Source: an uncultured Candidatus Saccharibacteria bacterium
GTDB lineage: Bacteria > Patescibacteriota > Dojkabacteria > SC72
Direction of reading: 5' to 3'
DNA length: 28,888 bases
Assembly: GCA_964573565.1 (NCBI GenBank)
Contig: CAZNJV010000001.1
Coordinates: 1 to 28,888 of the forward strand
Within the stretch, counting starts at the first letter, position 1; each line of letters opens with the position of its first letter. The position numbers and the translations under genes are program-made. Below are positions 5,632 to 24,928 of the stretch, piece after piece. The notes beneath the pieces are model-generated. The model was not told the origin of the DNA, made no database searches, and worked only from the letters and a program-made list of their open reading frames with translations.

Positions 5632-5663
5632 TTTAGTACTTATTAATTAAGTTATATATTATC

Positions 5664-7494: not shown

Positions 7495-7797
7495 TTATTT
7501 TTCTGCCAAGAGTGCAGATTGCTCTAAATATATGATAGATTTACCACTTTGGGATCTAATATCAAGCTGTTTGTCGGCTAATTTTTTAATTACTGTTATG
7601 GAGCTTGTTTTTGCAACTTGCTCTTCCATGAGTCTATTTTCTTCGACTAAGAAATTTTTCTCTTTGTTTAAACTTTGTAATTCTGTTCCTAAGGGATTTA
7701 ACACTGCGTTAATTACTAACTGAGAAAGCACAAATGCTACCATGGAGAATCCAAAGATCATGACTGGGAGGTTTTTTCTGGTTTTGTAGGTTTTCAT
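7495..7797 (-). CDS. ftsL: FtsL-like cell division protein
   Basis: 100 aa with a short basic N-terminus, one TM and a coiled coil. Syntenic between rsmH and ftsI. Confidence 0.7.
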   Translation of the reverse strand: MKTYKTRKNLPVMIFGFSMVAFVLSQLVINAVLNPLGTELQSLNKEKNFLVEENRLMEEQVAKTSSITVIKKLADKQLDIRSQSGKSIIYLEQSALLAEK

Positions 7798-7798
7798 G

Positions 7799-7807
7799 TT
7801 GGGCAGT
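7799..7807 (-). promoter_or_regulatory. ACTGCCCAA start-proximal motif (ftsL)
   Basis: 1 nt upstream of ATG 7797; TAAAAT lies 4 nt upstream of the motif. Confidence 0.55.
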
Positions 7808-7814
7808 AGTTATT

Positions 7815-8693
7815 TTATTTTTTAATCAAACATCTCAACTTGGCGGAAGCGGAGCGAGAATTTTGCTCTAACTCTATGTCGGTTGGGGCAATTGGACTTT
7901 TGAAGAGCAATTCTCCTTCCCCGCTTCTAGCCTTGTCGCTAAAGTAATTCTTAACAATTCGATCTTCTAAAGAATGGAAGGTTATCACTGATAGTCTTCC
8001 ATCGGATTGTAAGAGCTCAAAAGATTTATCTAATGCCTCTTTGAGGCTTTCTAATTCATCATTTACCACGATCCGCAGAGCCTGAAAGACCCTGCGGGAA
8101 GGGTTCTTAAAAGAATTATTCGCCGGCACGACTTTATAGATAAGTCTTGTAAGATCTCCAACTGTTTTAATATTGCTAAGCTCTTTTTTAATTGCTTTGG
8201 CAATTTTCATTGAATATCTTTCTTCTCCGTATTCCAAGAATAGTCTTGCTAACTGTCTCTCATCTAATACTGTGAGAATATCTAGTGCTGTGACTCCTAA
8301 GTTAGTATTCATTCTCATATCTAGTGGTTCTTGATCTTCTAGGTAACTGAAACCTCTGTTGTGAGATTCTTCTAGCTGTCTAGATGAGAGTCCTAGATCC
8401 ATAAGGATACCGTTTGGAGTTTTACCAATCTCTGCTACGAGTTTGTCGATGTCTCTAAAGTTGGATTGCTTGAGGATCCAATTCTCTTGGAAATTGTAAT
8501 AGCTTTTGACAAATTCAATAGCGAAACTGTCTTGGTCGATACTTAGTAGTAATCCATCAGGTGAGAGCTGCTTTAGAATTGATTGACTGTGACCACCATC
8601 TCCTAACGTGCAATCGATATAGAAACCATGTGGATCTATATTTAATGAATCTATTGATTCGTTTAAGAGTACTGGTACGTGTATTTTATCCAT
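7815..8693 (-). CDS. rsmH: 16S rRNA (cytosine1402-N4)-methyltransferase RsmH (MraW)
   Basis: HVPVLL, DCTLGDGGHS, DLGLSSRQL, PLDMRM, FQALRIVVNDEL, ITFHSLEDRIVK. Confidence 0.97.
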   Translation of the reverse strand: MDKIHVPVLLNESIDSLNIDPHGFYIDCTLGDGGHSQSILKQLSPDGLLLSIDQDSFAIEFVKSYYNFQENWILKQSNFRDIDKLVAEIGKTPNGILMDLGLSSRQLEESHNRGFSYLEDQEPLDMRMNTNLGVTALDILTVLDERQLARLFLEYGEERYSMKIAKAIKKELSNIKTVGDLTRLIYKVVPANNSFKNPSRRVFQALRIVVNDELESLKEALDKSFELLQSDGRLSVITFHSLEDRIVKNYFSDKARSGEGELLFKSPIAPTDIELEQNSRSASAKLRCLIKK

Positions 8694-9129
8694 TGTTCTT
8701 TTCTGTCATTTTAGTCAATTCTTGTGCGATATCTTCTCCATGTTGTTTTAGGTATTGGAGTCTCTCTTCCCATTTGGATTTCTCCCATATTTCGATCCAA
8801 TTTACTAAACCGATGAAAACGATATCTTCTTTGAGTTGTGCATGATCAAACAATGCTTGTGGTATTATGAATCTTCCTTGCTTGTCTGTTTGAACTTCTG
8901 TTGCACTCCCTACCAGGAATCTACTTGTATCACGGATGTTTTTATTTATAAAAGAGCCATCTATTACCTCTTTGGCTATTTTTTGCCACATATCCTGATT
9001 TACTAGGATAAGTGCATCTTCGTAGCCTCTGGTGAGTATTATGTTCTCACCTAGTTCATTTCTGAACTTTTTGGGAAGTGATGTTCTTTTCTTATTGCTA
9101 AGCTTTCCGTGGTACTCTCCTATGAGCAT
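8686..9129 (-). CDS. mraZ: Division/cell wall cluster transcriptional repressor MraZ
   Basis: MLIGEY...K.R..LPKKFR, TRGYEDAL, DKQGRFIIP, IEIW. First gene of the dcw operon. Confidence 0.96.
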   Translation of the reverse strand: MLIGEYHGKLSNKKRTSLPKKFRNELGENIILTRGYEDALILVNQDMWQKIAKEVIDGSFINKNIRDTSRFLVGSATEVQTDKQGRFIIPQALFDHAQLKEDIVFIGLVNWIEIWEKSKWEERLQYLKQHGEDIAQELTKMTEKNNG

Positions 9130-9135
9130 ATTTGG

Positions 9136-9195
9136 ATTTTACCACTTCTCACCACTTCATGCCACTAATTTAACATTATCTAAAATATGCGTCAA
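9136..9195 (-). promoter_or_regulatory. mraZ promoter(s) with three AGTGG MraZ-type boxes
   Basis: TTGACG (9195-9190), 17 nt, TAAATT (9172-9167). AGTGG at 9166-9162, 9156-9152 and 9146-9142 with 10-nt period. A second TG-G-TAAAAT (9141-9136) lies 6 nt from ATG. Confidence 0.8.
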
Positions 9196-9366
9196 GAAGA
9201 TTTAGTTATAGGATTGGATATAATATTCTAGGATATACAGATATATCGCTACTGAAATATATCTACCCTGTTGTGGGTGATATTGTGAACATGAACCGAT
9301 AGCAGAATTTATTGAAATATATATTTAAAGAAGTTAGTATAATTAAATAACTTGAGCCAAGTTTCT

Positions 9367-10737
9367 ATGAAAATCTATTTAAAAGATATAAAAGAGAGAT
9401 TCCCAGAGTTTGAGATTAGAAATTATGATGAGAATGCGTTTTTCACAGCCTTTAACCATGATTCGAGAACTATAAAGGATGGGGAGATCTTTATCCCTAT
9501 TGTTGGAGAAAAATTTGATGGCCATGATTTTATACTTCAGGCATTAAATGATGGTGCTGATATGGCCATATGTGAGGCGAAGAAATCTTTGTTAGTTAAA
9601 GATGCAATTAAGCCTGTGATTTTGGTTGATAGTGTTCGTGAGGGTCTACAGAAGATAATGTCTTTGTACACCTCCCATATCGATGCCAAGATTATGGGTA
9701 TAACAGGGAGTGCGGGTAAAACGACTACAAGAAAGATCCTTTCGACAATCTTGAGTTGCAATGGTTCTGTTTTGTCTGCAGAAGGTTCAAACATCAATAC
9801 TGTTTGGGGCAATGCGGTTTTACTTAGCAAATATACAGATGAAAAATATATAGTTTTGGAATGTGGTATGGATCATCCTGGTGAAATTGCTTGGCACATG
9901 AATTCAGAAGATCCTGATTTGGGGATATTGTTAAATGTAGGTTATGTACATGCCGAGGCTTTGGGTTCGATAGAGGGAGTGTATGAGGAGAAAAAGAACA
10001 TGGCCGATTATCTGGATCGTATGGGGAGACCTCTAATCCTGAATATAGATGATGAGAGGTTGCAAAGGATTGCCACTATATATAAATCGAAGCTTGTCAC
10101 CTATGGCTATAATGCGAATGCAGATTTTAGAATAGAATCATCTGTTTTGAGTCAGGATGGAATAGATTTTAAATTTGTGTATAAGGGAAATTCCTTTACT
10201 GGTCATTTGAAGGCCTATGGTGAGAAGCTTGTATATAATGTTGTAGCGGCCATAGCAGCAGCAGTGGAACTGGGAGTAAACATTGAAGATGCATTAGATG
10301 CACTAAAAGATTTCGAACCAGAAAGTGGTCGTTTTGAGATAATTCCACTTAGAAGTGGTAGCTTTATCATCAATGACGCATATAACGCGAATCCGGTTTC
10401 TATGGAAATGTCGCTTAATACATTCAACAAGTTGTATTCTAAGGAAGAATATAAGCGAATAGTAATATTGGGAGACATGAAAGAACTTGGAGATGTGTCT
10501 TCTAAACAGCATAAAGAGCTTGGAGAATTAGTAAACAAGATGGAATTTGATGATGTGTATTTCCTAGGAGAGTATTTTAAAGATTTCGGTATTGGCGAAG
10601 AGATCAGGTCGATTCCCGAAGCAGTAAGCATCATTAAGGAGAATTTAGAGAATGAGAAAAGAAAACTAGCTATTCTATGTAAGGGTAGTCACAGCACGGG
10701 TATATTTGAAATCCCAGATCTTGTGAAGAGTTTATAA
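9367..10737 (+). CDS. murF: MurF-type Mur ligase (UDP-MurNAc-tripeptide:D-Ala-D-Ala ligase family)
   Basis: DSR, GEKFDGHDF, GITGSAGKTTT, LECGMDHPGEI, NDAYNANPVSM, ILGDMKELG. The ORF opens at TTG 9352; ATG 9367 is preferred. Confidence 0.88.
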   Translation: MKIYLKDIKERFPEFEIRNYDENAFFTAFNHDSRTIKDGEIFIPIVGEKFDGHDFILQALNDGADMAICEAKKSLLVKDAIKPVILVDSVREGLQKIMSLYTSHIDAKIMGITGSAGKTTTRKILSTILSCNGSVLSAEGSNINTVWGNAVLLSKYTDEKYIVLECGMDHPGEIAWHMNSEDPDLGILLNVGYVHAEALGSIEGVYEEKKNMADYLDRMGRPLILNIDDERLQRIATIYKSKLVTYGYNANADFRIESSVLSQDGIDFKFVYKGNSFTGHLKAYGEKLVYNVVAAIAAAVELGVNIEDALDALKDFEPESGRFEIIPLRSGSFIINDAYNANPVSMEMSLNTFNKLYSKEEYKRIVILGDMKELGDVSSKQHKELGELVNKMEFDDVYFLGEYFKDFGIGEEIRSIPEAVSIIKENLENEKRKLAILCKGSHSTGIFEIPDLVKSL

Positions 10738-11898
10738 CTCAATTTCTTTTAATATTGTCTTAACAGCATCTGTTCTAAATATCTTTTCGATCTCCCTTTT
10801 ATCTACATCTTTTGTTTTCTGTAGGAATTTCTCTAACCTTAGCAACAAACAACTTGATGTGAGTTCTCCCTCCTGAATTATCTCTGCTAAACCTAAGTTA
10901 ACTAATACCGCTGCATTTTTGTATTGCTCATTATGTGTGACCCAAGGAATAGGTATAAATATGGAAGGTATCTGTAACACTCCCATCTCGTATACCGTAT
11001 TGGCTCCTGCTCTACCAACATATAGATCGATATTGTGTAAAAGATAGCCTAAATCCTTAGCTTGAATAAATGTAACAGGTAAGAATCTTGATCGAAGGTC
11101 TTTCTCTAAGTTCTCTTTGTACCCAATTAGAATTTTGTAATCATTGAAAACCTTGTTATCCCCTGTTTGAAGAATGATTTGGTATTTTTGTAACAACATC
11201 TTAAGAGATTCTTTTACAGTTTCGTTTATTAGGTGTGAACCTAGCCCTCCACCAGATATGTAGATAATGGGATATCTATCTCTGTTGCTTACCATCCCCT
11301 TTATACTCTCCGCGAAGTTCCCTTGTGCCTTGGTTTCAAATATCTCTGGTCTGACAAGATTTCCTGTTAATAGGGCTTTACCCTTCGGGAAATATTTAAA
11401 AGAAGAAGGGAAGGATATGAAAATTTTCTCTGCTAACTTCCCTACTATCTTGTTTGTTAAGCCAACTGTTGCAGTTTGCTCATGAAGATATATCTTAGAT
11501 TTAAAAAGTTTGGCAATCAAACAAACACTTACAGTTACATAACCACCCGTTGATATTATTATTTCAGGTTTGAATTTCTTAACAATTTTGTAGGAATCCA
11601 TAAGCCCGAGAATTGTTCTAAAAAGGAGTTTGATGGTATTGAAACTAAGAGATCGTTGTAGTTTTCCAGCACGTATGAATTTACATTCGAAGCCCTTTCC
11701 TTTCATCAACTTTTGCTCGAGAGAGTTTCCAGGTTTCTCACCTTCCATACCAAGATCACCACCGATATAGAGAAAATGGCTTTTATCTAACACATATCTC
11801 TCTTCAAGGCTTGATATGACAGAAAGTGCTGCAGAGATATGGCCTCCAGATCCACCTCCTGTTACGATTATTTTTTTACTTAACTGCTTTTTGCTCAT
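10732..11898 (-). CDS. murG: MurG GlcNAc transferase
   Basis: GGGSGGH, STGGYV, HEQ, GNLVR, GRAGANTVYE, EQYKNA. Downstream of ftsW. Confidence 0.9.
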   Translation of the reverse strand: MSKKQLSKKIIVTGGGSGGHISAALSVISSLEERYVLDKSHFLYIGGDLGMEGEKPGNSLEQKLMKGKGFECKFIRAGKLQRSLSFNTIKLLFRTILGLMDSYKIVKKFKPEIIISTGGYVTVSVCLIAKLFKSKIYLHEQTATVGLTNKIVGKLAEKIFISFPSSFKYFPKGKALLTGNLVRPEIFETKAQGNFAESIKGMVSNRDRYPIIYISGGGLGSHLINETVKESLKMLLQKYQIILQTGDNKVFNDYKILIGYKENLEKDLRSRFLPVTFIQAKDLGYLLHNIDLYVGRAGANTVYEMGVLQIPSIFIPIPWVTHNEQYKNAAVLVNLGLAEIIQEGELTSSCLLLRLEKFLQKTKDVDKREIEKIFRTDAVKTILKEIEL

Positions 11899-13090
11899 TC
11901 TGAGTGTTTGAGTATTTACTGATATTTAGTAGTATACCAATTCCTATGAGGGATACGATAGTGCTAGATCCACCATAGCTAACTAGAGGTATAGGCATTC
12001 CAGTGAGAGGAATGATACCAACATTTGCCCCTATATTTAAAAGTGTCTGAATAACAAGCCATACTGTAATGCCTGCTGCCAACAGTTTCCCTTGTTTATC
12101 CGGTGCTCCAAGTGCAACTTTGAGTCCTCTCCAAAGGAACCCTATCCATGCAATTATGATTAATGTACCTCCCAAGAATCCAAGCTCTTCAAGAATTACG
12201 GCAAATATTGAGTCTGTGAATGCAGTATTCTCTACCAGATATCCAAATCGTTGTCTTGATTGTCCAAATCCTGTACCAAAGAATCCTCCTGATCCTATTC
12301 CTATGAGAATTTGTTGCATCTGATACCCAGAGCCTTGTGGATCCGCCACTTTGCCGGTAAATAGCAAGCTTAAGAAGGTTGTGACCCTCTGCAATCTGTA
12401 TGGCTCTAGTATTGCCGCTATACCAGCTACTGGTATAAGTAATGAAAGTACGGAAAAAGAAGCGAGGGTATGGATTCTGTCCTCTCCAGCCATTAAGAAC
12501 ATGATGAAGCATGTAATACAAACGACCATTGTTGTACCGAGGTCTGGTTCTAGAAGTATAAGTAAGGCGACTACACCGAGAATGGCTATGAATCCCAAGA
12601 GATTCTTTATGAACCCTTCCCTAATTGCAGATTTGAAATCTTTGTATTTGTAATCTCGCTTTGCTAACCATTGTGCAAGGTACATGATCAATGTGAGTTT
12701 GGCAAACTCGGCGGGTTGTATTTTAGGCAATGACCCTAGAGAGAACCATCTTTTAGAACCGTTAGTTGCTTCTCCTAATATTAATACTGCAGCTAGGAGT
12801 AATACTGTGATTACCAGTGCTGGGAATGCTAATTTCAGTATCTTTCTGTAATCCCAGAAATATACTATTACTGCAGGAACTGCCCCTACTAGTAACCAAA
12901 CAATTTGGGATTTAAGGAAGTAGAATTGATCATTGAAGACTGTATTTGCTTGGTAAACACTGGCATCAAAGATCATAATAGCCCCGAATATCGCCATTAA
13001 TACGCAGAATATTAAAAGGAAAGAATCTGGTTTGTGTCCGGAGATTACTTTCTTGAGTTTTCTTTTTGGGGCATGGTTTTGATTGGACAT
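11876..13090 (-). CDS. ftsW: SEDS-family peptidoglycan glycosyltransferase FtsW
   Basis: KRWF...IQPAEFAKL, EPDLGT, GYQ..Q...GSGG, TDSIFAVILEELG (catalytic Asp), PLVSYGGSS. Upstream of murG. Confidence 0.93.
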   Translation of the reverse strand: MSNQNHAPKRKLKKVISGHKPDSFLLIFCVLMAIFGAIMIFDASVYQANTVFNDQFYFLKSQIVWLLVGAVPAVIVYFWDYRKILKLAFPALVITVLLLAAVLILGEATNGSKRWFSLGSLPKIQPAEFAKLTLIMYLAQWLAKRDYKYKDFKSAIREGFIKNLLGFIAILGVVALLILLEPDLGTTMVVCITCFIMFLMAGEDRIHTLASFSVLSLLIPVAGIAAILEPYRLQRVTTFLSLLFTGKVADPQGSGYQMQQILIGIGSGGFFGTGFGQSRQRFGYLVENTAFTDSIFAVILEELGFLGGTLIIIAWIGFLWRGLKVALGAPDKQGKLLAAGITVWLVIQTLLNIGANVGIIPLTGMPIPLVSYGGSSTIVSLIGIGILLNISKYSNTQNEQKAVK

Positions 13091-13121
13091 AGTCTGACTA
13101 TTAATATACTATAATTAATAT

Positions 13122-13733
13122 ATGAATCAAAAGGAAAGGTCAAAAAGTTTAGGATATCTTTTTGTGGTGGGTGGTCCTGGAGGTAGTGGAGCTTCCACTA
13201 TTGCGAGAATGCTTGCAGATAATTTTTCTCTTAAGCGTATATATGGTGGAAAGATGTTTAGATCTTTGTTAAGGAAGGCTGGGTATGAAGAGAGTGATGA
13301 TGCGTATTCTAAGAAGAATGAGAAGTTATTAAAGAAATTGGATAAGCAGGTAGATGCTTTGTTAATGTCTGAGATCCAGAATCCAAATGTTTTGATAGAG
13401 TCTAAAAATTTTGCAGCTTTAGCGACAAAGAAAAAACTTCCCTGCACAGTAAGAATCTGGATTACTGCTTCTCTGAATGTGAGAGCTCAGAGGACGCTTC
13501 TTAAGCAGGGTATAAAGCCAGGTTTTAAGAGTTTTCATAAATATCTGGAGGCTAGGAATAATTTAAAGAATAGGTATAGGATTGATGCGATGAGGTACTC
13601 TTCTTTGTATGGTATTAATTATGATAAACCAGAGGAGTATAATGACATTATCATAGATTCTTCTAATCTAAATGAGAAGGAGACCTTTGATTTAATTTTA
13701 AAAAATATTAAAGATGGCGGATATATTAAATAA
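13122..13733 (+). CDS. Archaeal-type (d)CMP kinase-family P-loop protein lacking the Walker A lysine
   Basis: GGPGGSGASTIA, GKMFR, DKQVD, RIWITASLNVRAQR, RY..LYGI, IIIDSSNL. Confidence 0.75.
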   Translation: MNQKERSKSLGYLFVVGGPGGSGASTIARMLADNFSLKRIYGGKMFRSLLRKAGYEESDDAYSKKNEKLLKKLDKQVDALLMSEIQNPNVLIESKNFAALATKKKLPCTVRIWITASLNVRAQRTLLKQGIKPGFKSFHKYLEARNNLKNRYRIDAMRYSSLYGINYDKPEEYNDIIIDSSNLNEKETFDLILKNIKDGGYIK

Positions 13734-13983
13734 TAATATCCCTGTTAATAATAGTACTCCTAATCCTGTTCCGACTCCTACTCCTGATGTTACGTCACAT
13801 GTTAATCCTGTCCCTCGTGATGAATTTCTAGTTAAAGAACCTCCTCCGCATGGTTTAGATAGTTCATGGAGAAGATGGAAGTGTTTAAACTGTGGTTATG
13901 TGTATGAGGGTATATTTAAAGGAGTTATGGTATGTCCTAAGTGTGGTAATGCTGATCCGGACAAGTTTGATGAATCTGAATAA
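13714..13983 (+). CDS. Stand-alone rubredoxin-like / zinc-ribbon protein with Pro-rich N-terminus
   Basis: WKCLNCGYVYEG...CPKCG resembles the rubrerythrin C-terminal metal knuckle. Confidence 0.75.
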   Translation: MADILNNNIPVNNSTPNPVPTPTPDVTSHVNPVPRDEFLVKEPPPHGLDSSWRRWKCLNCGYVYEGIFKGVMVCPKCGNADPDKFDESE

Positions 13984-13988
13984 TAATC

Positions 13989-14072
13989 TGCCGGGAGAGG
14001 GAATCGAACCCTCACTCTATTTCTAGAACGGGATTTTAAGTCCCGCGCGTCTGCCAATTCCGCCATCTCGGC
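13989..14072 (-). tRNA. tRNA-Leu(UAA), CCA not encoded
   Basis: Cloverleaf GCCGAGA...CGGGA-CTTAAAA-TCCCG, long variable arm, GAGGG-TTCGATT-CCCTC, discriminator A. Confidence 0.95.
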
Positions 14073-14089
14073 TTAATAGATGTACGATT

Positions 14090-14118
14090 ATTCTAATCTA
14101 AAAGGTCTTTTTATTCAA
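14090..14118 (-). promoter_or_regulatory. Sigma70-type promoter for tRNA-Leu(UAA)
   Basis: TTGAAT (14118-14113), 17 nt, TAGAAT (14095-14090). Confidence 0.7.
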
Positions 14119-14121
14119 TAA

Positions 14122-14197
14122 TGGAGGTGACGATGGGACTCGAACCCATGATAGCGGTTTTGCAGACCGCGGCCTTAACCATCTTGGCTACGTCACC
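14122..14197 (-). tRNA. tRNA-Cys(GCA), CCA encoded
   Basis: GGTGACG/CGTCACC acceptor stem, GCGGT-CTGCAAA-ACCGC anticodon arm, U73 discriminator, CCA. Confidence 0.96.
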
Positions 14198-14201
14198 GTG
14201 T

Positions 14202-15584
14202 CTATCTATTTATTACATCCTTAACAGTAACTATCTCTAAAATAGCATCTGTTTGGTTATGTCTTATAGAACTACCGCTAATAATAGCAATTTTATCATT
14301 TAAATCCAACTCCCCTTGGGCATAAACAAGATCAACAGCACGTTCTGTACATTCATCCCTATCTGTCGGAAGCGTATTTGAATACACACCTCTTACACCA
14401 TGCAAAATAGAACTCTGTTTGATAGTAGATACCTTTGTAGCAACCTCCCACACTTGTATATTAGGTCTATGCCTTATTAAACTCCTAATAGTATTTCCAG
14501 TATTAGAGATGACAATTACTCCCTTAAGCTTCATATTTGCTGATATATCACAAAGATTTCGGCATAACTCATCTACCTCCACAGGTGCACAGGTATGCTC
14601 ATATATAGGACTTTGCTGAAGAACAGATTCTGCTCTAAGTGCGATCTTTTGCATTGCTAACACTGCTTGCTCAGGATATCTTCCTGTAGAAGTCTCTGCA
14701 GAAAGCATAGTCGCATCAGTTCCATCCATCACAGCATTAGCAACATCTGAGACCTCTGCTCTTGTGGGAATAACAGAATTCTTCATAGATTCTAACATCT
14801 GGGTGGCTACAATAACCGGTTTGCCTGTTGCTCTGCATTTGTAAATCATCTGCTTTTGAAGAATAGGTACACTCTCATATGGAGTTTCTATTCCTAAGTC
14901 ACCACGTGCGATCATTATGCCATCTGCGGCTTTAAGAATCTCATCGAAATTCTCTACTCCATGTCTATTCTCAATCTTGGCAATTAATTGAATATCACTT
15001 CCAACGGTCAAACCACGGATGATTTCAAGATCTTTTGCACTCTTTATGAACGAAAGTGATATGAAATCAAATCCCAAAGATATTGCATTTGCAATGTCAG
15101 CTTTGTCTTTTTCCGTAATCGGCGGAAAGTTTAAATCTGCATCAGGGATATTAACAGTTTTGTTAGGTTTTAGGAGTCCTGGTTGCAAAACCTCACATAT
15201 GACCTCTTGATCCTTGATTTCCTTGACTGCTAATTGAATAGTACCATCATCTAGGAGAATCCTTGTACCCAAGGCTACTACCTCATGCAAGTTTGGGTAT
15301 GAGATTCTGAAAGTATTAGGAATTGAGATGGTGCCAGCTATCTGCATCTCTTGTGATAGGCCCTCTACTCTAATCTTGTGCCCCTGTGTGTCAAGCATGA
15401 GACCAATTCTTGGAGAGATGCTGCGAATCGTTTCTGCAACTCGTTTTAGCTCTTCAAAATCGGCAAAAGAAGCGTTGATTCTCGCAACACTCATACCATT
15501 CTCATACATCTTCTGTAAAACAGCTCTGTCCCAGGAAGATGGGCCAATTGTGGCAATAATTTTTGTCTTTGATTCGTTTCTCAT
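14202..15584 (-). CDS. pyk: Pyruvate kinase (likely K+-independent type)
   Basis: KIIATIGP, DTQGHKIR, AKIEN, DGIMIARGDLG, TQMLESM, PTRAEVSDV, MLSAETSTG. The ORF-track start 15626 lies inside the predicted promoter, so ATG 15584 is preferred. Confidence 0.96.
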   Translation of the reverse strand: MRNESKTKIIATIGPSSWDRAVLQKMYENGMSVARINASFADFEELKRVAETIRSISPRIGLMLDTQGHKIRVEGLSQEMQIAGTISIPNTFRISYPNLHEVVALGTRILLDDGTIQLAVKEIKDQEVICEVLQPGLLKPNKTVNIPDADLNFPPITEKDKADIANAISLGFDFISLSFIKSAKDLEIIRGLTVGSDIQLIAKIENRHGVENFDEILKAADGIMIARGDLGIETPYESVPILQKQMIYKCRATGKPVIVATQMLESMKNSVIPTRAEVSDVANAVMDGTDATMLSAETSTGRYPEQAVLAMQKIALRAESVLQQSPIYEHTCAPVEVDELCRNLCDISANMKLKGVIVISNTGNTIRSLIRHRPNIQVWEVATKVSTIKQSSILHGVRGVYSNTLPTDRDECTERAVDLVYAQGELDLNDKIAIISGSSIRHNQTDAILEIVTVKDVINR

Positions 15585-15592
15585 TGGGCAGT
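15584..15592 (-). promoter_or_regulatory. ACTGCCCAA start-proximal motif (pyk)
   Basis: The last A of the motif is the A of ATG 15584. Confidence 0.55.
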
Positions 15593-15602
15593 TAGATAGT
15601 TC

Positions 15603-15631
15603 AGTATACTGAATGTCACTATTCATGTCTA
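15603..15631 (-). promoter_or_regulatory. Sigma70-type promoter for pyk
   Basis: TAGACA (15631-15626), 17 nt, TATACT (15608-15603). Confidence 0.65.
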
Positions 15632-15667
15632 TGTCTGTGTGATATATTATTGGTGTTATAACATATG

Positions 15668-15676
15668 ACTGCCCAA
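15668..15676 (+). promoter_or_regulatory. ACTGCCCAA start-proximal motif (holin-like gene)
   Basis: 4 nt upstream of ATG 15681; extended -10 TG-T-TATAAC at 15654-15662. Confidence 0.55.
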
Positions 15677-15680
15677 AAAG

Positions 15681-16088
15681 ATGAAGAATTTCTTAAAATC
15701 TCTAATCGCTTATTTTGCATTGGTATTCCTAGCGGTTAGCCTTTTTGATAAAGGTATTGTTTTGCCAGAAAGTGGGTTATACTTCGCAGCTACATTATTG
15801 ATTCTTACACTTACTATCCTTATTGCAGAGCCATTACTAAAATTCCTTACAGTTAGAGTCAACTTCATCACAATGTTCTTAATGTCATCCCTTTTACTAA
15901 TTGGGGTCTTTTTTCTTCTGAAGATATTTATGACAGATTTCTACATTAATGAATATACATTTGAAGAGATGACTCTGGGGACACTTAAGGTTACAAGTTT
16001 TGTCGTAAAACCGACATTAACAATCATTTCTGCATCTCTAACGTCGGCACTCTTCTGTGCTACCTTCAGAGGATTGGATAGTGTATAA
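15681..16088 (+). CDS. Small 4-TM membrane protein, phage-holin-4/YvlD-like
   Basis: Four hydrophobic helices and an IAEPLLKFLTVRVNFITM segment resembling the family P-I-L-x-L-L-x-L-P pattern. TAATG overlap with secG. Confidence 0.6.
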   Translation: MKNFLKSLIAYFALVFLAVSLFDKGIVLPESGLYFAATLLILTLTILIAEPLLKFLTVRVNFITMFLMSSLLLIGVFFLLKIFMTDFYINEYTFEEMTLGTLKVTSFVVKPTLTIISASLTSALFCATFRGLDSV

Positions 16089-16327
16089 TGGTGGGCATGG
16101 ATAACACTCAAAAGATTCTTTTAATAGTTCAAGTTGTGATTTGCGCAGTATTAATAGTTTCTGTCTTATTACAAAATCGTGCAGAAGGCTTGGGCAAAAT
16201 GTTTGGTGGTGGTGGTGAGGTGTTTAGAACTAAACGAGGATTAGAAAAGGTCTTGTATTATGCAACTATTGTTTTAATTATTGCTCTCATCACTATTTCT
16301 TTGCTTATTCTTAAATACTCAGAATAA
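16088..16327 (+). CDS. secG: Preprotein translocase subunit SecG
   Basis: TM-LLQNRAEGLGKMFGGGG..FRTKRGLEKVL-TM pattern. Confidence 0.9.
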   Translation: MVGMDNTQKILLIVQVVICAVLIVSVLLQNRAEGLGKMFGGGGEVFRTKRGLEKVLYYATIVLIIALITISLLILKYSE

Positions 16328-16334
16328 AGATTTG

Positions 16335-18110
16335 ATGAAAAATTCCAAGGATCAGAAACAAAATGGGTCTCTTTCCATGAAAGATGCTTTAAGTGAGTTC
16401 AAACACATTAGAGTTATCGAAAATCATAATGAAAAGCGAGATTGGAGGAATTTCTTCTGGAATTATCCTACTTTCTTGGTTTCTTTATTTAAGAAAACAA
16501 TTCCTTTTAGCTATATTTTCCTTTCATTGGTTGCAGCTTTCTTGGTAGGTCTCTTTTTTCAATCTAATATCTTTGCGAAATTTCTAAGAAGTAATTCTAG
16601 TGCAAATGATACATATACAGAGGGTATGGTTGGTGCTATATCTTCCTTTAATCCTCTGTTTGTGTCTGCAAACTACGTAGATAAGGTGGTAGATAGTTTG
16701 GTTTTCGAGAAGTTTGTATATATTGATACTTCAGGAAAACCTACGCCTGGTGTGGCAAAGGAATGGAGTGTCTCAGAGGACAATTTGACCTACTCTTTCG
16801 TTTTGGATGAAGATCTGTATTGGCAAAATGGGGATCCAGTAACGATTGATGATGTGCTTTTTACTTTCAATACGGCAGTTTCATTGTATAGTGATTATCA
16901 TTTTGATTCTGTTGGTTCTGCTTTAGAGGGTATAACGATTTCTGCTATTGATGAGGAGACGATTCAGTTTACTCTGAAGTCTTCAAATCCTACATTCTTT
17001 GAAGCAATATCATTATATATTGTCCCAAAGAGTGTCTTAGAAGATGTATCAATGACAGAGATGCCTTTTGACTCTTTCGCTGTATCACCGGTAGGTTGTG
17101 GTAAGTATCGAGTGGAGAAGACAGAACAAAATGCAGTGTATTTAGTTGATAATGAATATGACGAATACTATCCATCATTAAAGAATATTGTATTTAGAAT
17201 CTATCCTGATTATGCCTCTTTGGAGACTGCAATGCGTGTTGGGGATATTGATGCTCTCGGTACATGGGATAGCGAGGCTTTGTCATTCATGAAGGATTAT
17301 CCTAACTATGGAGTACTAACCAAGGATGAAATCTACAGGAATAGGATATTGTTTTTTAATGTAAGAAAAGATGTGCTTAAGGACAAGAACTTGAGAATTG
17401 GTTTGAGTTATTTATTAAACAAAGAAGCATTGCTATCTGAAGCACCTCTTGAAGGTGATGTCATGCAGGGTCCTATTCCATCCACCTCTTGGGCGTTTAA
17501 TAGCCAGCTGGACTATTATGCATATAATGCGGAGAAAGCTGCTGCGTTTTTAAGTAATGCAGGCTATACAAAAAATGCAGAGACTGAATATTTCGAATCA
17601 AAGGAGGGGGATATTCTAAGTTTTACATTAAGCTATTTGGATAATGATCTGAATAAGCGTGTAGTGGCAACGATAGTGTCTTTGTTCGATAAAGAGGGTG
17701 TTGTCATAAAACCAAGAGCCCTTTCTTACAATGAGATTTCACAACAGGTTATTGCTACCAGAGATTTTGAAATTCTTTTGTACGAGGTCGAAACTACTGT
17801 AGATCCGGATCAGTACAATCTTTGGCATTCTTTGAAGGTAAACTATCCAGATCTAAATCTCTCAGGTTATGAGTATGAAAGGGTGGATATTTTACTTGAA
17901 GATGCTAGAAAAACAAATAATGTTACTACACGTCAGACGAAATACAATCAGTTCCAAAGGTACTTAATGGCAGATGCTCCAGCCATTTTCCTTTATCATC
18001 CGACATTTGTCTTCTACTTCAATAGCAAGTTAAGTGGTATTGATATGACAAATACCAATTTCTCGTATGAAAGGTATTGGAATATACAGGATTGGAAATG
18101 GAATCTCTAA
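16335..18110 (+). CDS. TM-anchored family 5 (peptide/nickel) ABC solute-binding protein, orphan
   Basis: SFNPLF, PGVAKEWSVSED, YWQNGDPVTIDDVLFTF, PVGCGKY, LRIGLSYLLNKE, DAPAIFLY. ATG 16335 is preferred over the 16281 start that overlaps secG. Confidence 0.88.
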   Translation: MKNSKDQKQNGSLSMKDALSEFKHIRVIENHNEKRDWRNFFWNYPTFLVSLFKKTIPFSYIFLSLVAAFLVGLFFQSNIFAKFLRSNSSANDTYTEGMVGAISSFNPLFVSANYVDKVVDSLVFEKFVYIDTSGKPTPGVAKEWSVSEDNLTYSFVLDEDLYWQNGDPVTIDDVLFTFNTAVSLYSDYHFDSVGSALEGITISAIDEETIQFTLKSSNPTFFEAISLYIVPKSVLEDVSMTEMPFDSFAVSPVGCGKYRVEKTEQNAVYLVDNEYDEYYPSLKNIVFRIYPDYASLETAMRVGDIDALGTWDSEALSFMKDYPNYGVLTKDEIYRNRILFFNVRKDVLKDKNLRIGLSYLLNKEALLSEAPLEGDVMQGPIPSTSWAFNSQLDYYAYNAEKAAAFLSNAGYTKNAETEYFESKEGDILSFTLSYLDNDLNKRVVATIVSLFDKEGVVIKPRALSYNEISQQVIATRDFEILLYEVETTVDPDQYNLWHSLKVNYPDLNLSGYEYERVDILLEDARKTNNVTTRQTKYNQFQRYLMADAPAIFLYHPTFVFYFNSKLSGIDMTNTNFSYERYWNIQDWKWNL

Positions 18111-18113
18111 ACA

Positions 18114-18197
18114 TGCCAAGAGGGGGATTTGAACCCCCATCCTATCGCTAGGACTACATCCTGAATGTAGCGCGTCTGCCAGTTTCGCCATCTTGGC
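18114..18197 (-). tRNA. tRNA-Leu(CAG), CCA not encoded
   Basis: GCCAAGA/TCTTGGC acceptor stem, CTACA-TTCAGGA-TGTAG anticodon arm, long variable arm, T-loop TTCAAAT. TG-G-TAAAAT lies upstream. Confidence 0.95.
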
Positions 18198-18223
18198 TTA
18201 CCCAGGATATTTTACCACGAAAG

Positions 18224-19309
18224 CTACTTTTTTGAAGTAAGTGTAACGTCTACAGCAGGTTTGGATTCTTTACCGTTCGCTTCATCAGGATCAAACTTCT
18301 TGTAGTCTTTTAGGAAGTCAATCTTATTTATTACAACTTTCTCTTCTTTTTGCTCAACTGGTTCTGCTTTTTCTTCTTTTTTACCCTCGGCCATTAGCTT
18401 CTCTCTGAGAGTGACCTCTTGCTTCTTTTCTGTATTCTTTTGGAACTGTTTAGCGATCTTCTCCTCTGCTCTATGTGTAACCTCTTTGATTCGTTGAGTC
18501 TTGCTAAAAATGCCAACCACAATACCTAGTACAAATGCACAGAAAGCGATGAGTATGTATGTCTGATTATTCACAATCCAGTCCTTCACTACAGTTAATG
18601 ATAGTTGGCTAAGATCAAGTAGATACTCTCCCTTATTATTAGTACTGCTATTAACATCTAAGGTAAATTTGGTTACTTCAGAAAAGTTACTAGCATAGCC
18701 ATACCTTCTGATATATCCTGTTATTGAATAGATGTCGTTAGGTAAAGTTGTACGACTGAAATTCATACTCCACTTACCATCCCCATCAATTAACCCTGTC
18801 TGTGAAGACACCTCCGTACCACTAGAAAGAAGCATTATGATCTCAGAATTTGCCAATCCAGTCCCAGAAATGGTGACTGTATCTGCAGTAATAGTTGGTG
18901 TATTAAGAATCGGAGGACGAGGAATTATAACGATGGAAGTACTGTAAATTTGTGTGGCTGCATTTGCATCTTGATATTTAAATTCAAGTGTATGCTTACC
19001 TATGCTTAGTGCAGGAAAACTGTATGGTGAAGTTATGTCTACAAATCCTTTACTATCTATCTCCAATTGGACGATTGCTCCACTTTGTGATGGATTTGTA
19101 AATGTAATTATTGTACTAGGGTTATCTGTTTGATCAGGAATATCCAATCCGAGAGGATTTTCCTTTGTCGAAGTTACGGGTGTTGATGTCGTAGTGGATT
19201 CTGTTGTCCCTACGAGTTGTTGCACGGTTGTGTCTTCTTGTGCAAAAGCATGACTTGCAAAAATTAATGGGATTACAGCTGTTGCTACTAGGATTTTGAG
19301 ATATTTCAT
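18224..19309 (-). CDS. Type I membrane surface protein with probable Ig-like domains and a charged cytoplasmic tail
   Basis: Signal peptide ending AFA, Thr-rich linker, SIGKHTLEF and TISGTG...DGDGKWS segments typical of bacterial Ig-like folds, TM YILIAFCAFVLGIVVGIF, K/E-rich tail. Confidence 0.75.
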   Translation of the reverse strand: MKYLKILVATAVIPLIFASHAFAQEDTTVQQLVGTTESTTTSTPVTSTKENPLGLDIPDQTDNPSTIITFTNPSQSGAIVQLEIDSKGFVDITSPYSFPALSIGKHTLEFKYQDANAATQIYSTSIVIIPRPPILNTPTITADTVTISGTGLANSEIIMLLSSGTEVSSQTGLIDGDGKWSMNFSRTTLPNDIYSITGYIRRYGYASNFSEVTKFTLDVNSSTNNKGEYLLDLSQLSLTVVKDWIVNNQTYILIAFCAFVLGIVVGIFSKTQRIKEVTHRAEEKIAKQFQKNTEKKQEVTLREKLMAEGKKEEKAEPVEQKEEKVVINKIDFLKDYKKFDPDEANGKESKPAVDVTLTSKK

Positions 19310-19311
19310 TG

Positions 19312-19320
19312 TTAGGCAGT
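19312..19320 (-). promoter_or_regulatory. ACTGCCTAA start-proximal motif (Ig-like gene)
   Basis: 2 nt upstream of ATG 19309; TATAAA lies 4 nt upstream of the motif. Confidence 0.55.
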
Positions 19321-19335
19321 TAAATTTATATTCGG

Positions 19336-19827
19336 TTATTTCTCCATTCTATCAATGAACAAGATTCCTTCCAAGTGGTCATGCTCATGTTGGATGCTCG
19401 TAGCGTTAATGTCCTTGTATCGTTTTGTAATCCATTTCCCATCCTTATCTTGGTACTTGATTTTGACTTTGTAATATCTTTCAACGTTACCGACTTTCTT
19501 CGGTACACTTAAACATCCCTCTTCTCCTTTGATTTTTAAAAATCCCTCTGGCTCTACACTAGGATTAATGAAAAGTTCCCATTCATTAGTATCATAGTTT
19601 AATGAATAGAAAACACAGTATGGTTTTCCAACCTGAATAGCGGCGATACCACCTGCGGGAACATTGCCTTGATCTTCACTGTGCTCTGCTGTATACAACA
19701 GGTCCTCAAGGAAGGTTGTAAATTCTTTGCTTTGAAGAATCTCAGGTGTTACCAATGAGCTCTTTCCTCTTAGTATCTGTTCTTCTTTTGCATCTTCGAT
19801 TGTTAGTATCTTTAAAGGCTTTGCCAT
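19336..19827 (-). CDS. def: Peptide deformylase
   Basis: GGIAAIQVG, EGCLS, QHEHDHLEG. Confidence 0.95.
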   Translation of the reverse strand: MAKPLKILTIEDAKEEQILRGKSSLVTPEILQSKEFTTFLEDLLYTAEHSEDQGNVPAGGIAAIQVGKPYCVFYSLNYDTNEWELFINPSVEPEGFLKIKGEEGCLSVPKKVGNVERYYKVKIKYQDKDGKWITKRYKDINATSIQHEHDHLEGILFIDRMEK

Positions 19828-19848
19828 AATGATAAGTATATCATAATG

Positions 19849-24872: not shown

Positions 24873-24893
24873 TTCTATTGAATACTATACTTT

Positions 24894-24928
24894 AGGAGGG
24901 AGTCGCAAGATTCCCTCTTTTTGTTTTT
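24894..24928 (+). terminator. Rho-independent terminator
   Basis: AGGAGGGAGTC-GCAA-GATTCCCTCTT stem with a GNRA loop, followed by a T-rich tract. Lies between convergent genes. Confidence 0.85.

Follow-up and report, generated by a model that had tools for sequence, protein, structure and literature searches.

A conserved ACTGCC motif next to start codons in Candidatus Dojkabacteria and its possible role in translation initiation

Results

A Short Motif Precedes Four Genes of the Window

The window (the whole stretch of DNA analyzed here) comprises 28,888 bp of contig CAZNJV010000001.1, with a GC content of 37%. It carries a division and cell wall (dcw) cluster (mraZ, rsmH, ftsL, ftsI, mraY, murF, murG, and ftsW) together with pyk, secG, def, typA, and other genes. 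The nearest relatives of the window among GTDB species genomes are metagenome-assembled genomes (MAGs) of Candidatus Dojkabacteria (WS6), which belong to the Candidate Phyla Radiation (CPR, or Patescibacteria); identity to these relatives is up to 97% for TypA and 54–78% for pyk. The subject of this study is a nine-nucleotide motif, ACTGCCYAA, that stands directly before the start codons of four genes in the window.

ACTGCCYAA occurs exactly four times, against 0.38 copies expected by chance, and none of 100 dinucleotide-preserving shuffles of the window contained four or more. The initial annotation had listed four copies, all within 4 nt of an ATG, and counting recovers the same four. Its rough estimate was ∼0.3 chance copies, made with an assumed GC content (34%) that is below the actual value. 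The claim that the motif is found only at start codons holds for the 9-mer but not for its six-nucleotide core, ACTGCC, of which the window has 13 copies (6.7 expected); the other nine adjoin no gene start and appear to lie within or antisense to coding sequence, as read from the list of open reading frames (ORFs). Variants of the 9-mer with one mismatch are not enriched in the window (13 versus 10.8 expected).

Each copy ends 0–4 nt 5′ of the ATG of a real gene, as seen by direct reading of the sequence. Copy 1 (ACTGCCCAA-c-ATG; 7799..7807, minus strand) precedes an ftsL-like gene with its ATG at 7797–7795, and falls inside the 17-nt gap that separates this ATG from the rsmH stop codon (7817–7815). 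The assignment as ftsL is by position, the 100-aa product being encoded between rsmH and the penicillin-binding protein (PBP)/FtsI gene. Copy 2 (ACTGCCCA-ATG; 15584..15592, minus strand) lies in the short 5′ leader of pyk, and its ninth base is the A of the ATG (15584–15582). Divergent from pyk, copy 3 (ACTGCCCAA-aaag-ATG; 15668..15676, plus strand) precedes the gene for a 135-aa membrane protein (ATG at 15681). Copy 4 (ACTGCCTAA-ca-ATG; 19312..19320, minus strand) is located in a 26-nt gap 3′ of the def stop codon (19338–19336) and precedes the gene for a 361-aa secreted protein (ATG at 19309–19307). A gene for an OmpR-family regulator adjoins def and the secreted-protein gene.

The pyk product is pyruvate kinase (PF00224, E = 4e-102), and the other three products are membrane or secreted proteins. 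No significant Pfam match was obtained for the 135-aa protein, for which Phage_holin_4_2 scored below threshold (E = 0.32). The 361-aa protein has a signal peptide, and its match to Big_6 is likewise sub-threshold (E = 0.0014); the labels "holin-like" and "Ig-like," previously applied to these two proteins, have no basis beyond these two matches. The start of pyk was set to 15584 because the N terminus MRNESKTKIIATIGP is conserved in 20 relatives. The longest-ORF rule places it at 15626, 14 codons too early, and automatic gene calls in the Dojkabacteria lineage may often be mis-started.

The Core Is Conserved, Strand Specific, and Anchored to the Start Codon

About 40 related contigs were compared, and Dojkabacteria loci are given here by labels such as L001 and L023; a TruB-based scan of metagenomes supplied 20 Dojkabacteria-like contigs. 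The sampled loci, which are syntenic, cover ∼60 kb per genome and ∼50 gene families. Start codons were counted over 406 kb of Dojkabacteria loci (377 crudely called starts) and by the same procedure in loci from other phyla. A pyk-alignment scan yielded mainly loci of other phyla, its peptides being universal, and these loci served solely as negative controls. Of the two proteins at the window edges, one was matched only on Logan contigs of at most 3.7 kb and the other had no record.

Across the ∼40 contigs, the core A-CTGCC is nearly invariant 2–5 nt before the ATG of the same four families, in flanks that have diverged, and in orthologs whose protein identity falls to ∼35–55%. Among 34 curated instances from the four families, the six core positions are A in 31, C in 33, T in 34, G in 33, C in 30, and C in 32. 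The position that follows is a pyrimidine in 29 of the 34 and the one after it is A in 23, whereas the upstream flank is merely AT-rich. Inspection of the orthologous upstream regions finds the motif in orthologs of all four families, in a form that is shorter than originally described: A-CTGCC-Y is the conserved unit, but the YAA tail is retained in close relatives only. CTGCC ends 2–5 nt before the ATG in 30 of the 34 instances, with a spacing that is specific to the family.

Retention was followed family by family. For pyk, the motif is kept in 11 non-redundant orthologs (55–78% protein identity), with the variants CTGTC and CTGCT, and for the secreted-protein gene it is kept in 10 orthologs, with the variants CTGTC and CTACC. 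The membrane-protein gene retains it in 6–7 orthologs, including those of L001, L003, L007, L018, L019, and L023. Upstream of ftsL, A-CTGCC lies 2–4 nt before the ATG in 14 non-redundant contigs, metagenome contigs among them. A fifth family, an OmpR-like response regulator, has CTGTC in the L019/L023 lineage only, and the murF family also has a lineage-specific CTGTC copy. All eight departures from CTGCC are transitions (CTGTC four times, CTGCT twice, and TTGCC and CTACC once each), seven of them C to T and one G to A. Such changes would keep G·U or A-U pairs with a partner containing G and U, of the form 5′-GGG(C/U)AGU-3′.

The same signal is recovered by counts that take no account of gene family. 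CTGCC is the top 5-mer at positions −20 to −1 of first-ATG ORFs in the Dojkabacteria loci (16 occurrences versus 2.0 expected), followed by TGCCC, ACTGC, and then words resembling −10 boxes; Shine-Dalgarno (SD) words are absent from the ranking. An ATG opening an ORF of at least 60 aa lies within 12 nt of 25 out of 264 CTGCC sites, compared with 0–10 for 18 other permutations of the same letters. CTGCC is found at most 13 nt before 18 of 352 starts in Dojkabacteria; the corresponding figures are 22 of 2222 for other phyla and, in eight loci from other CPR bacteria, 2 of 141. With the crude gene calls, it is upstream of 22 of the 377 Dojkabacteria starts (5.8%). The motif is always on the sense strand.

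Promoters Lie at Variable Distances from the Motif

Upstream of pyk, a promoter that matches consensus at 10 of 12 positions (TAGACA-17-TATACT; 15603..15631, minus strand) places its −10 box at 15608–15603, 10 nt from the motif. The TATACT is conserved and stands 8–14 nt from the motif across lineages. The 135-aa gene has two candidate promoters on the plus strand. One is an extended −10 element, TGaTATATT (15640–15648), which is conserved together with the motif, 19 nt apart, in distant lineages; the other, TGtTATAAC (15654–15662), is 5 nt from the motif by direct reading. For copy 4, a promoter-like sequence (TTGGAA-17-TG-TAGAAT; 19346..19374, minus strand) lies 25 nt upstream in the 3′ end of def, and could be an internal promoter or could be kept merely as coding sequence for the peptide deformylase C terminus (...FIDRMEK). 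No promoter was found for ftsL by a consensus scan; its motif stands in the 17-nt gap of a mraZ-rsmH-ftsL-ftsI operon. The "−10-like boxes" reported 4–5 nt upstream of three copies do exist as sequence, but the conserved promoter of pyk is 10 nt away, and for the 135-aa gene the box 19 nt away is the better conserved one.

Overall, the −10 box stands 8–25 nt from the motif, depending on gene and lineage, and the motif stands 2–7 nt from the ATG. None of the four window genes has the spacing of a leaderless gene, since the −10 box is 10, 19, or 25 nt upstream of the motif and ftsL has none. Motif-bearing genes have a conserved −10 box 19–35 nt from the ATG, or no box at all, and hence are not leaderless.

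SD Motifs Are Not Enriched in the Lineage

GGAGG precedes 3 of the 377 Dojkabacteria starts, and GGAG or GAGG precedes 4% of them, as opposed to 17.6% when genes in loci of other phyla are called in the same crude way. The statement in the initial annotation that the four genes have no SD is borne out, yet the same is true of nearly all genes of the lineage. Instead, TANNNT hexamers pile up 5–7 nt before the ATG in the Dojkabacteria loci, and many other genes overlap the stop codon of the gene upstream. The lineage thus shows no enrichment of SD motifs, together with frequent leaderless-type promoters and stop/start overlaps. A −10 box 5–7 nt from the ATG probably gives rise to leaderless mRNAs, and the overlaps probably reflect translational coupling.

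The neighbors of the motif-bearing genes illustrate this architecture, as def, mraZ, and cmk of the window all show the leaderless-type spacing. The extended −10 element of def (TGaTATACT; 19835–19843, minus strand) ends 7 nt before the ATG at 19827, and TGnTATA(C/A)T is found at exactly this distance in 17 of 17 loci. In mraZ, the −10 box is 6–7 nt before the ATG and is preceded by three GTGG repeats, an arrangement kept in 14 Dojkabacteria loci. In the window, the repeats have a 10-nt spacing (GTGGcatgaaGTGGtgagaaGTGG; 9142–9165, minus strand), and TAAAAT ends 6 nt from the ATG (9129). This looks like a MraZ autoregulatory operator placed on a leaderless promoter.

YbeY is a factor for the maturation of the 16S 3′ end. 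According to a 2026 bioRxiv preprint (10.64898/2026.08.26.747336), members of the class Dojkabacteria have lost YbeY and have G in place of N119 of uS11, a residue of the platform; in E. coli it holds bS21 in place next to the SD helix. These changes may be connected with non-SD initiation in Dojkabacteria. Loss of the anti-SD is described in the CPR ribosome paper only for a subgroup of Parcubacteria.

The Motif Alternates with Leaderless and Coupled Starts

Start architectures were tallied for 75 non-redundant orthologs from five families, with a TANNNT ending 4–8 nt before the ATG scored as leaderless-type. The motif is present in 41. Among the 34 orthologs that do not have it, 19 are leaderless-type, two were scored as coupled, and in two more (ftsL of L005 and L013) the upstream stop codon overlaps or abuts the ATG (TAATG, TAGATG). 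The pyk genes of L006, L008, L009, L010, and L014 have no motif and carry TATATT 6–7 nt before the ATG. The same holds for the secreted-protein gene of L009, L013, and L014 (TATACT, TATAAT, or TAGAAT, 6–7 nt) and of L022 (GATAAT, 7 nt), and for the membrane-protein gene of L005, L013, and L015 (TATATT, 5–7 nt). In L015, where ftsL has no motif, its ATG is 7 nt from the rsmH stop. The response-regulator family is leaderless-type in seven lineages and has CTGTC in the L019/L023 lineage. Taken together, the comparisons show a motif that is real, conserved, strand specific, lineage specific, and anchored to the ATG, and that alternates with leaderless or coupled architectures.

Two start regions within these families have a form of their own. 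In L022 (18215–18245), pyk begins at an ATG that arose 5′ of the motif (TATACT-9 nt-ATG-ACTGCCCCAAAA), and ACTGCCCC forms codons 2–4 of pyk. The in-frame motif may be left over from a change to a near-leaderless start. In L009, the minus-strand ortholog of the 135-aa membrane protein has TATAAT followed by a 17-nt SD-like leader (GGAGAAGGGAGAAGACA). It may be that certain Dojkabacteria lineages can still use an SD sequence; if so, their anti-SD would be intact.

Search for a Partner of the Motif

The core ACUGCC(Y) is not complementary to CCUCC, and no GGAGG-like sequence precedes the four window genes. The motif also shows no sign of a conserved structure: its mean unpaired probability is 0.57, as compared to 0.60 for coding sequence, and no consistent pairing is predicted. 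A hairpin with the downstream coding sequence was rejected accordingly, as such pairing, with the WD codons, is available to a subset of pyk leaders only.

Intergenic sequence from ∼600 kb of Dojkabacteria loci was examined for small RNAs (sRNAs) complementary to the motif (GGCAGT/GGGCAG), and no candidate was seen. After exclusion of the antisense of the start motifs themselves, the GGCAGT/GGGCAG sites outside ORFs are not shared between distant lineages; they include a typA terminator hairpin in close relatives (GGGCAGTC-N3-GACTGCCC followed by a T-run; L016 11984–12005, just 3′ of typA; L003 691–712; L017 5525–5546). It was discarded as a partner, being an ordinary terminator stem that carries both the motif and its complement; the match is taken as coincidence because the typA terminator of the window (∼24890–24925, minus strand) has a different stem. 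The D-loop of tRNA-Leu contains (U/C)UGGCAGA, the complement of CUGCCA, and genes for tRNA-Leu(UAA) (13989–14072, minus strand) and tRNA-Leu(CAG) (18114–18197, minus strand) lie directly 3′ of pyk and the secreted-protein gene, respectively. This match, too, was judged coincidental because the G residues of the D-loop are normally engaged in tertiary pairs.

Discussion

We infer that the motif is transcribed and acts positively on initiation; at about even confidence, A-CUGCC-(Y) would serve Candidatus Dojkabacteria as a cis-acting element of the mRNA in translation initiation. A role at the level of the mRNA is suggested by the anchoring to the ATG, the strand specificity, and the occurrence of the motif at both promoter-proximal and intercistronic sites. 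Its frequent exchange for leaderless promoters or coupling suggests that it is one of several interchangeable solutions for starting translation, which would give it a positive, SD-like role. In the mechanism we propose, a minority of genes (∼5% of starts; 4–5 of ∼50 families) that have a leader or an intercistronic gap would use A-CUGCC 2–5 nt before the AUG to recruit or position the initiating ribosome, and the element would be the functional counterpart of the SD. It would pair with a G-rich single-stranded RNA (approximately 5′-GGG(C/U)AGU-3′), for which a 16S 3′ extension and some other RNA are candidates; the reader might instead be a protein. Of the possibilities raised by the initial annotation, a non-canonical translation-initiation signal is the one best supported by the comparative data, given a motif that is conserved, strand specific, ATG anchored, intercistronic in part, and replaceable.

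A number of results weigh against this proposal. The motif is limited to 4–5 families, the same ones throughout the class, which a small conserved regulon would also explain, and ∼10 kb of new sequence beside truB in the 20 metagenome contigs yielded no new motif-bearing family. Genes with an apparent leader or gap and no motif exist (mraY, ftsW, typA, and murF of the window; TATAAT is 23 nt upstream of murF, and the −10 boxes of ftsW and typA are 11–12 nt upstream), and therefore leadered mRNAs do not all require the motif. In the tally of architectures, 11 of the 34 motif-less orthologs are neither leaderless nor coupled under the rules used; they include the SD-like leader GGAGAAGGGAGAAG of L009 and several near-miss −10 boxes. 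The mutual exclusion of the motif and a −10 box at 4–8 nt is partly by construction, as the two overlap physically. Mutation bias could account for the transition-only variation (8 of 8). The presence of the motif in RNA is deduced from promoter positions, and its behavior genome-wide is extrapolated from ∼50 families in syntenic loci.

The search for a ribosomal reader adds to these points. The core is ∼3 nt nearer the AUG than that of a canonical SD, which ends ∼5–9 nt upstream of the start codon; a standard duplex with the 16S tail would not easily accommodate this. When 185,579 GTDB species genomes were scanned for GTCGTAACAAGGTA-N10-40-GGCAGT, there were nine matches and none from CPR bacteria, in a collection where the 16S gene is missing from many MAGs. 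The result speaks against the anti-SD having simply been replaced, although a longer unprocessed 3′ extension, or a partner minus the final U, would be outside the reach of the scan. K-mer checks found no rRNA in any of the sampled Dojkabacteria loci, and at the Rfam gathering threshold the window and five loci gave only tRNAs, with no match to a cis-regulatory RNA.

A serious rival, which we regard as possible but less probable than an initiation signal, is that the motif is the site of a trans-acting regulator (an sRNA with a GGG(C/U)AGU seed, or an RNA-binding protein) that occludes or exposes the start codon of a small regulon. It has to be taken seriously because the families are few, because the territory of truB brought no gain, and because leadered genes manage without the motif. 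The same short motif does recur at the initiation regions of unrelated mRNAs in 4–5 families, as expected for such targets; the four families are the same class-wide with few others, three of their four products are membrane or secreted proteins, and the site abuts the AUG in the manner of CsrA-type and sRNA targets. Variation by transitions alone would suit an RNA seed. However, no recurring complementary sRNA emerged from the ∼600 kb searched, and loss of the motif often goes with a switch to a leaderless or coupled start, whereas a negative operator would more likely vanish from an otherwise unchanged leader. The lineage-specific CTGTC copies in the response-regulator and murF families also look more like a generic solution than like membership of a fixed regulon.

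Returning to a positive signal at initiation, a particular and more doubtful form of it is that ACUGCC(Y) replaces the SD and is read by a remodeled mRNA-exit platform, for example by an unprocessed or altered 16S 3′ extension that contains GGG(C/U)AGU. The reported loss of YbeY and the change in uS11 would fit such a platform.

An operator at the DNA level, bound by a transcription factor just downstream of or over the transcription start so that the repressor acts as a roadblock, seems unlikely. The AT-rich hexamers 4–5 nt upstream of three window copies, the position of the pyk motif at approximately +4 to +12 of the transcript, and the OmpR-family regulator encoded nearby would all be in keeping with it. 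Yet the motif is a single asymmetric 6–7-mer with no repeat or dyad, unlike OmpR/PhoB or MraZ sites, and the triple GTGG of MraZ type is found only upstream of mraZ. The motif is, moreover, always on the sense strand. The earlier suggestion of an operator overlapping the transcription start is disfavored further by the spacing, which is fixed relative to the ATG and variable relative to the −10 box, and by the ftsL copies, which stand in a gap with no detectable promoter.

Least of all do we expect a promoter element, such as a −10 region for an alternative sigma factor, which would give leaderless or near-leaderless transcripts: the motif does sit roughly where leaderless orthologs have their −10 box, and alternates with that box, but it ends 2–5 nt from the ATG, too close for a −10, it has no conserved −35 partner, and both pyk and the 135-aa gene have conserved −10 boxes of sigma-70 type at more distant upstream positions. 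MraZ boxes and promoters of sigma-54 (GG at −24, GC at −12) and sigma-28 (TAAA-N15-GCCGATAA) were rejected on sequence; the TGC is not preceded by GG at a distance of 10 nt, and the likeness to GCCGATAA is loose and would put the start inside the gene. Upstream ORFs were likewise rejected, and use of CUG as an alternative in-frame start was excluded because the spacings between motif and ATG fall in all three frames.

As an initiation signal, the motif can be set beside several known systems. Like the SD, it is a short sense-strand motif at a fixed short distance from the start; it is found in intercistronic positions as well as behind promoters, and leaderless or coupled mRNAs can do without it. 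Unlike the SD, it is a pyrimidine-rich ACUGCC, lies ∼3 nt nearer the AUG, and stands at only ∼5% of starts; no complementary 16S tail from CPR bacteria turned up in the GGCAGT scan. Leaderless mRNAs are initiated in Actinobacteria, Deinococcus, and archaea. In the present genomes, the leaderless type is the commonest recognizable architecture and alternates with the motif in orthologs, whereas the motif genes themselves have their −10 box 19–35 nt from the ATG or have none. For Bacteroidota, Baez et al. reportedly described in 2019 an SD-independent initiation with a Kozak-like, A-rich context. The SD is largely abandoned and there is a sequence preference near the AUG in both cases, but the signal in Bacteroidota is a diffuse A-enrichment in nearly all genes, and that in Dojkabacteria is a discrete, near-invariant hexamer with C and G in few genes.

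Operators of the CsrA GGA or sRNA-seed kind resemble the motif in being short, conserved, and laid over the initiation regions of several functionally unrelated mRNAs. The Dojkabacteria motif differs from them in that it is single-copy and unstructured, and in that its loss often changes the initiation architecture. Non-SD enhancers complementary to rRNA include epsilon of phage T7 and the termination upstream ribosomal binding site (TURBS) reinitiation motif of caliciviruses. They offer a parallel at the level of concept, namely pairing of the mRNA with rRNA outside the anti-SD and use at stop-restart sites (compare rsmH-ftsL and def-secreted protein), and they have no sequence similarity to the motif.

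CPR bacteria have reduced and unusual ribosomes and are not culturable, so that their initiation is known from sequence only. In the literature on initiation in CPR, Patescibacteria, and Dojkabacteria, we found no description of a non-SD start-proximal motif, and to our knowledge, discrete bacterial start-codon signals other than the SD are almost without precedent. A class-wide, ATG-anchored motif is a testable handle on how Dojkabacteria ribosomes select start sites, and it would improve the prediction of gene starts in Dojkabacteria MAGs, as the 14 codons of pyk illustrate. If its partner is an rRNA, bacteria would have a second code for the docking of mRNA on rRNA, of independent evolutionary origin; if its reader is a regulator, the genes concerned would be the first post-transcriptional regulon proposed for Dojkabacteria.

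Other Observations

Phages of Dojkabacteria that might be rich in the motif were sought in IMG/VR with the pattern TAACTGCCYAA-N0-3-ATGAA. The 120 stretches retrieved have at most two start-proximal copies each, which is the level of chance, and the idea was abandoned.

Two further start regions of the dcw cluster are conserved in their own right. The gap between the PBP stop codon and the mraY ATG (5632–5663 in the window, minus strand) is AT-rich, and its length of 25–28 nt is conserved across lineages. It contains neither ACTGCC nor an SD, and no −10 box keeps a consistent position in it; a conserved TTGAGA at the C terminus of the PBP could be a −35 element for mraY. In the intergenic region between the divergent ftsW and cmk genes, the block TAGTATATTAATAG (13091–13121, minus strand; ftsW ATG at 13090) shows strong conservation; in 12 loci, exactly 12 nt separate the end of its TATATT from the ATG. 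This suggests either a fixed leader of ∼5 nt or a shared bidirectional promoter.

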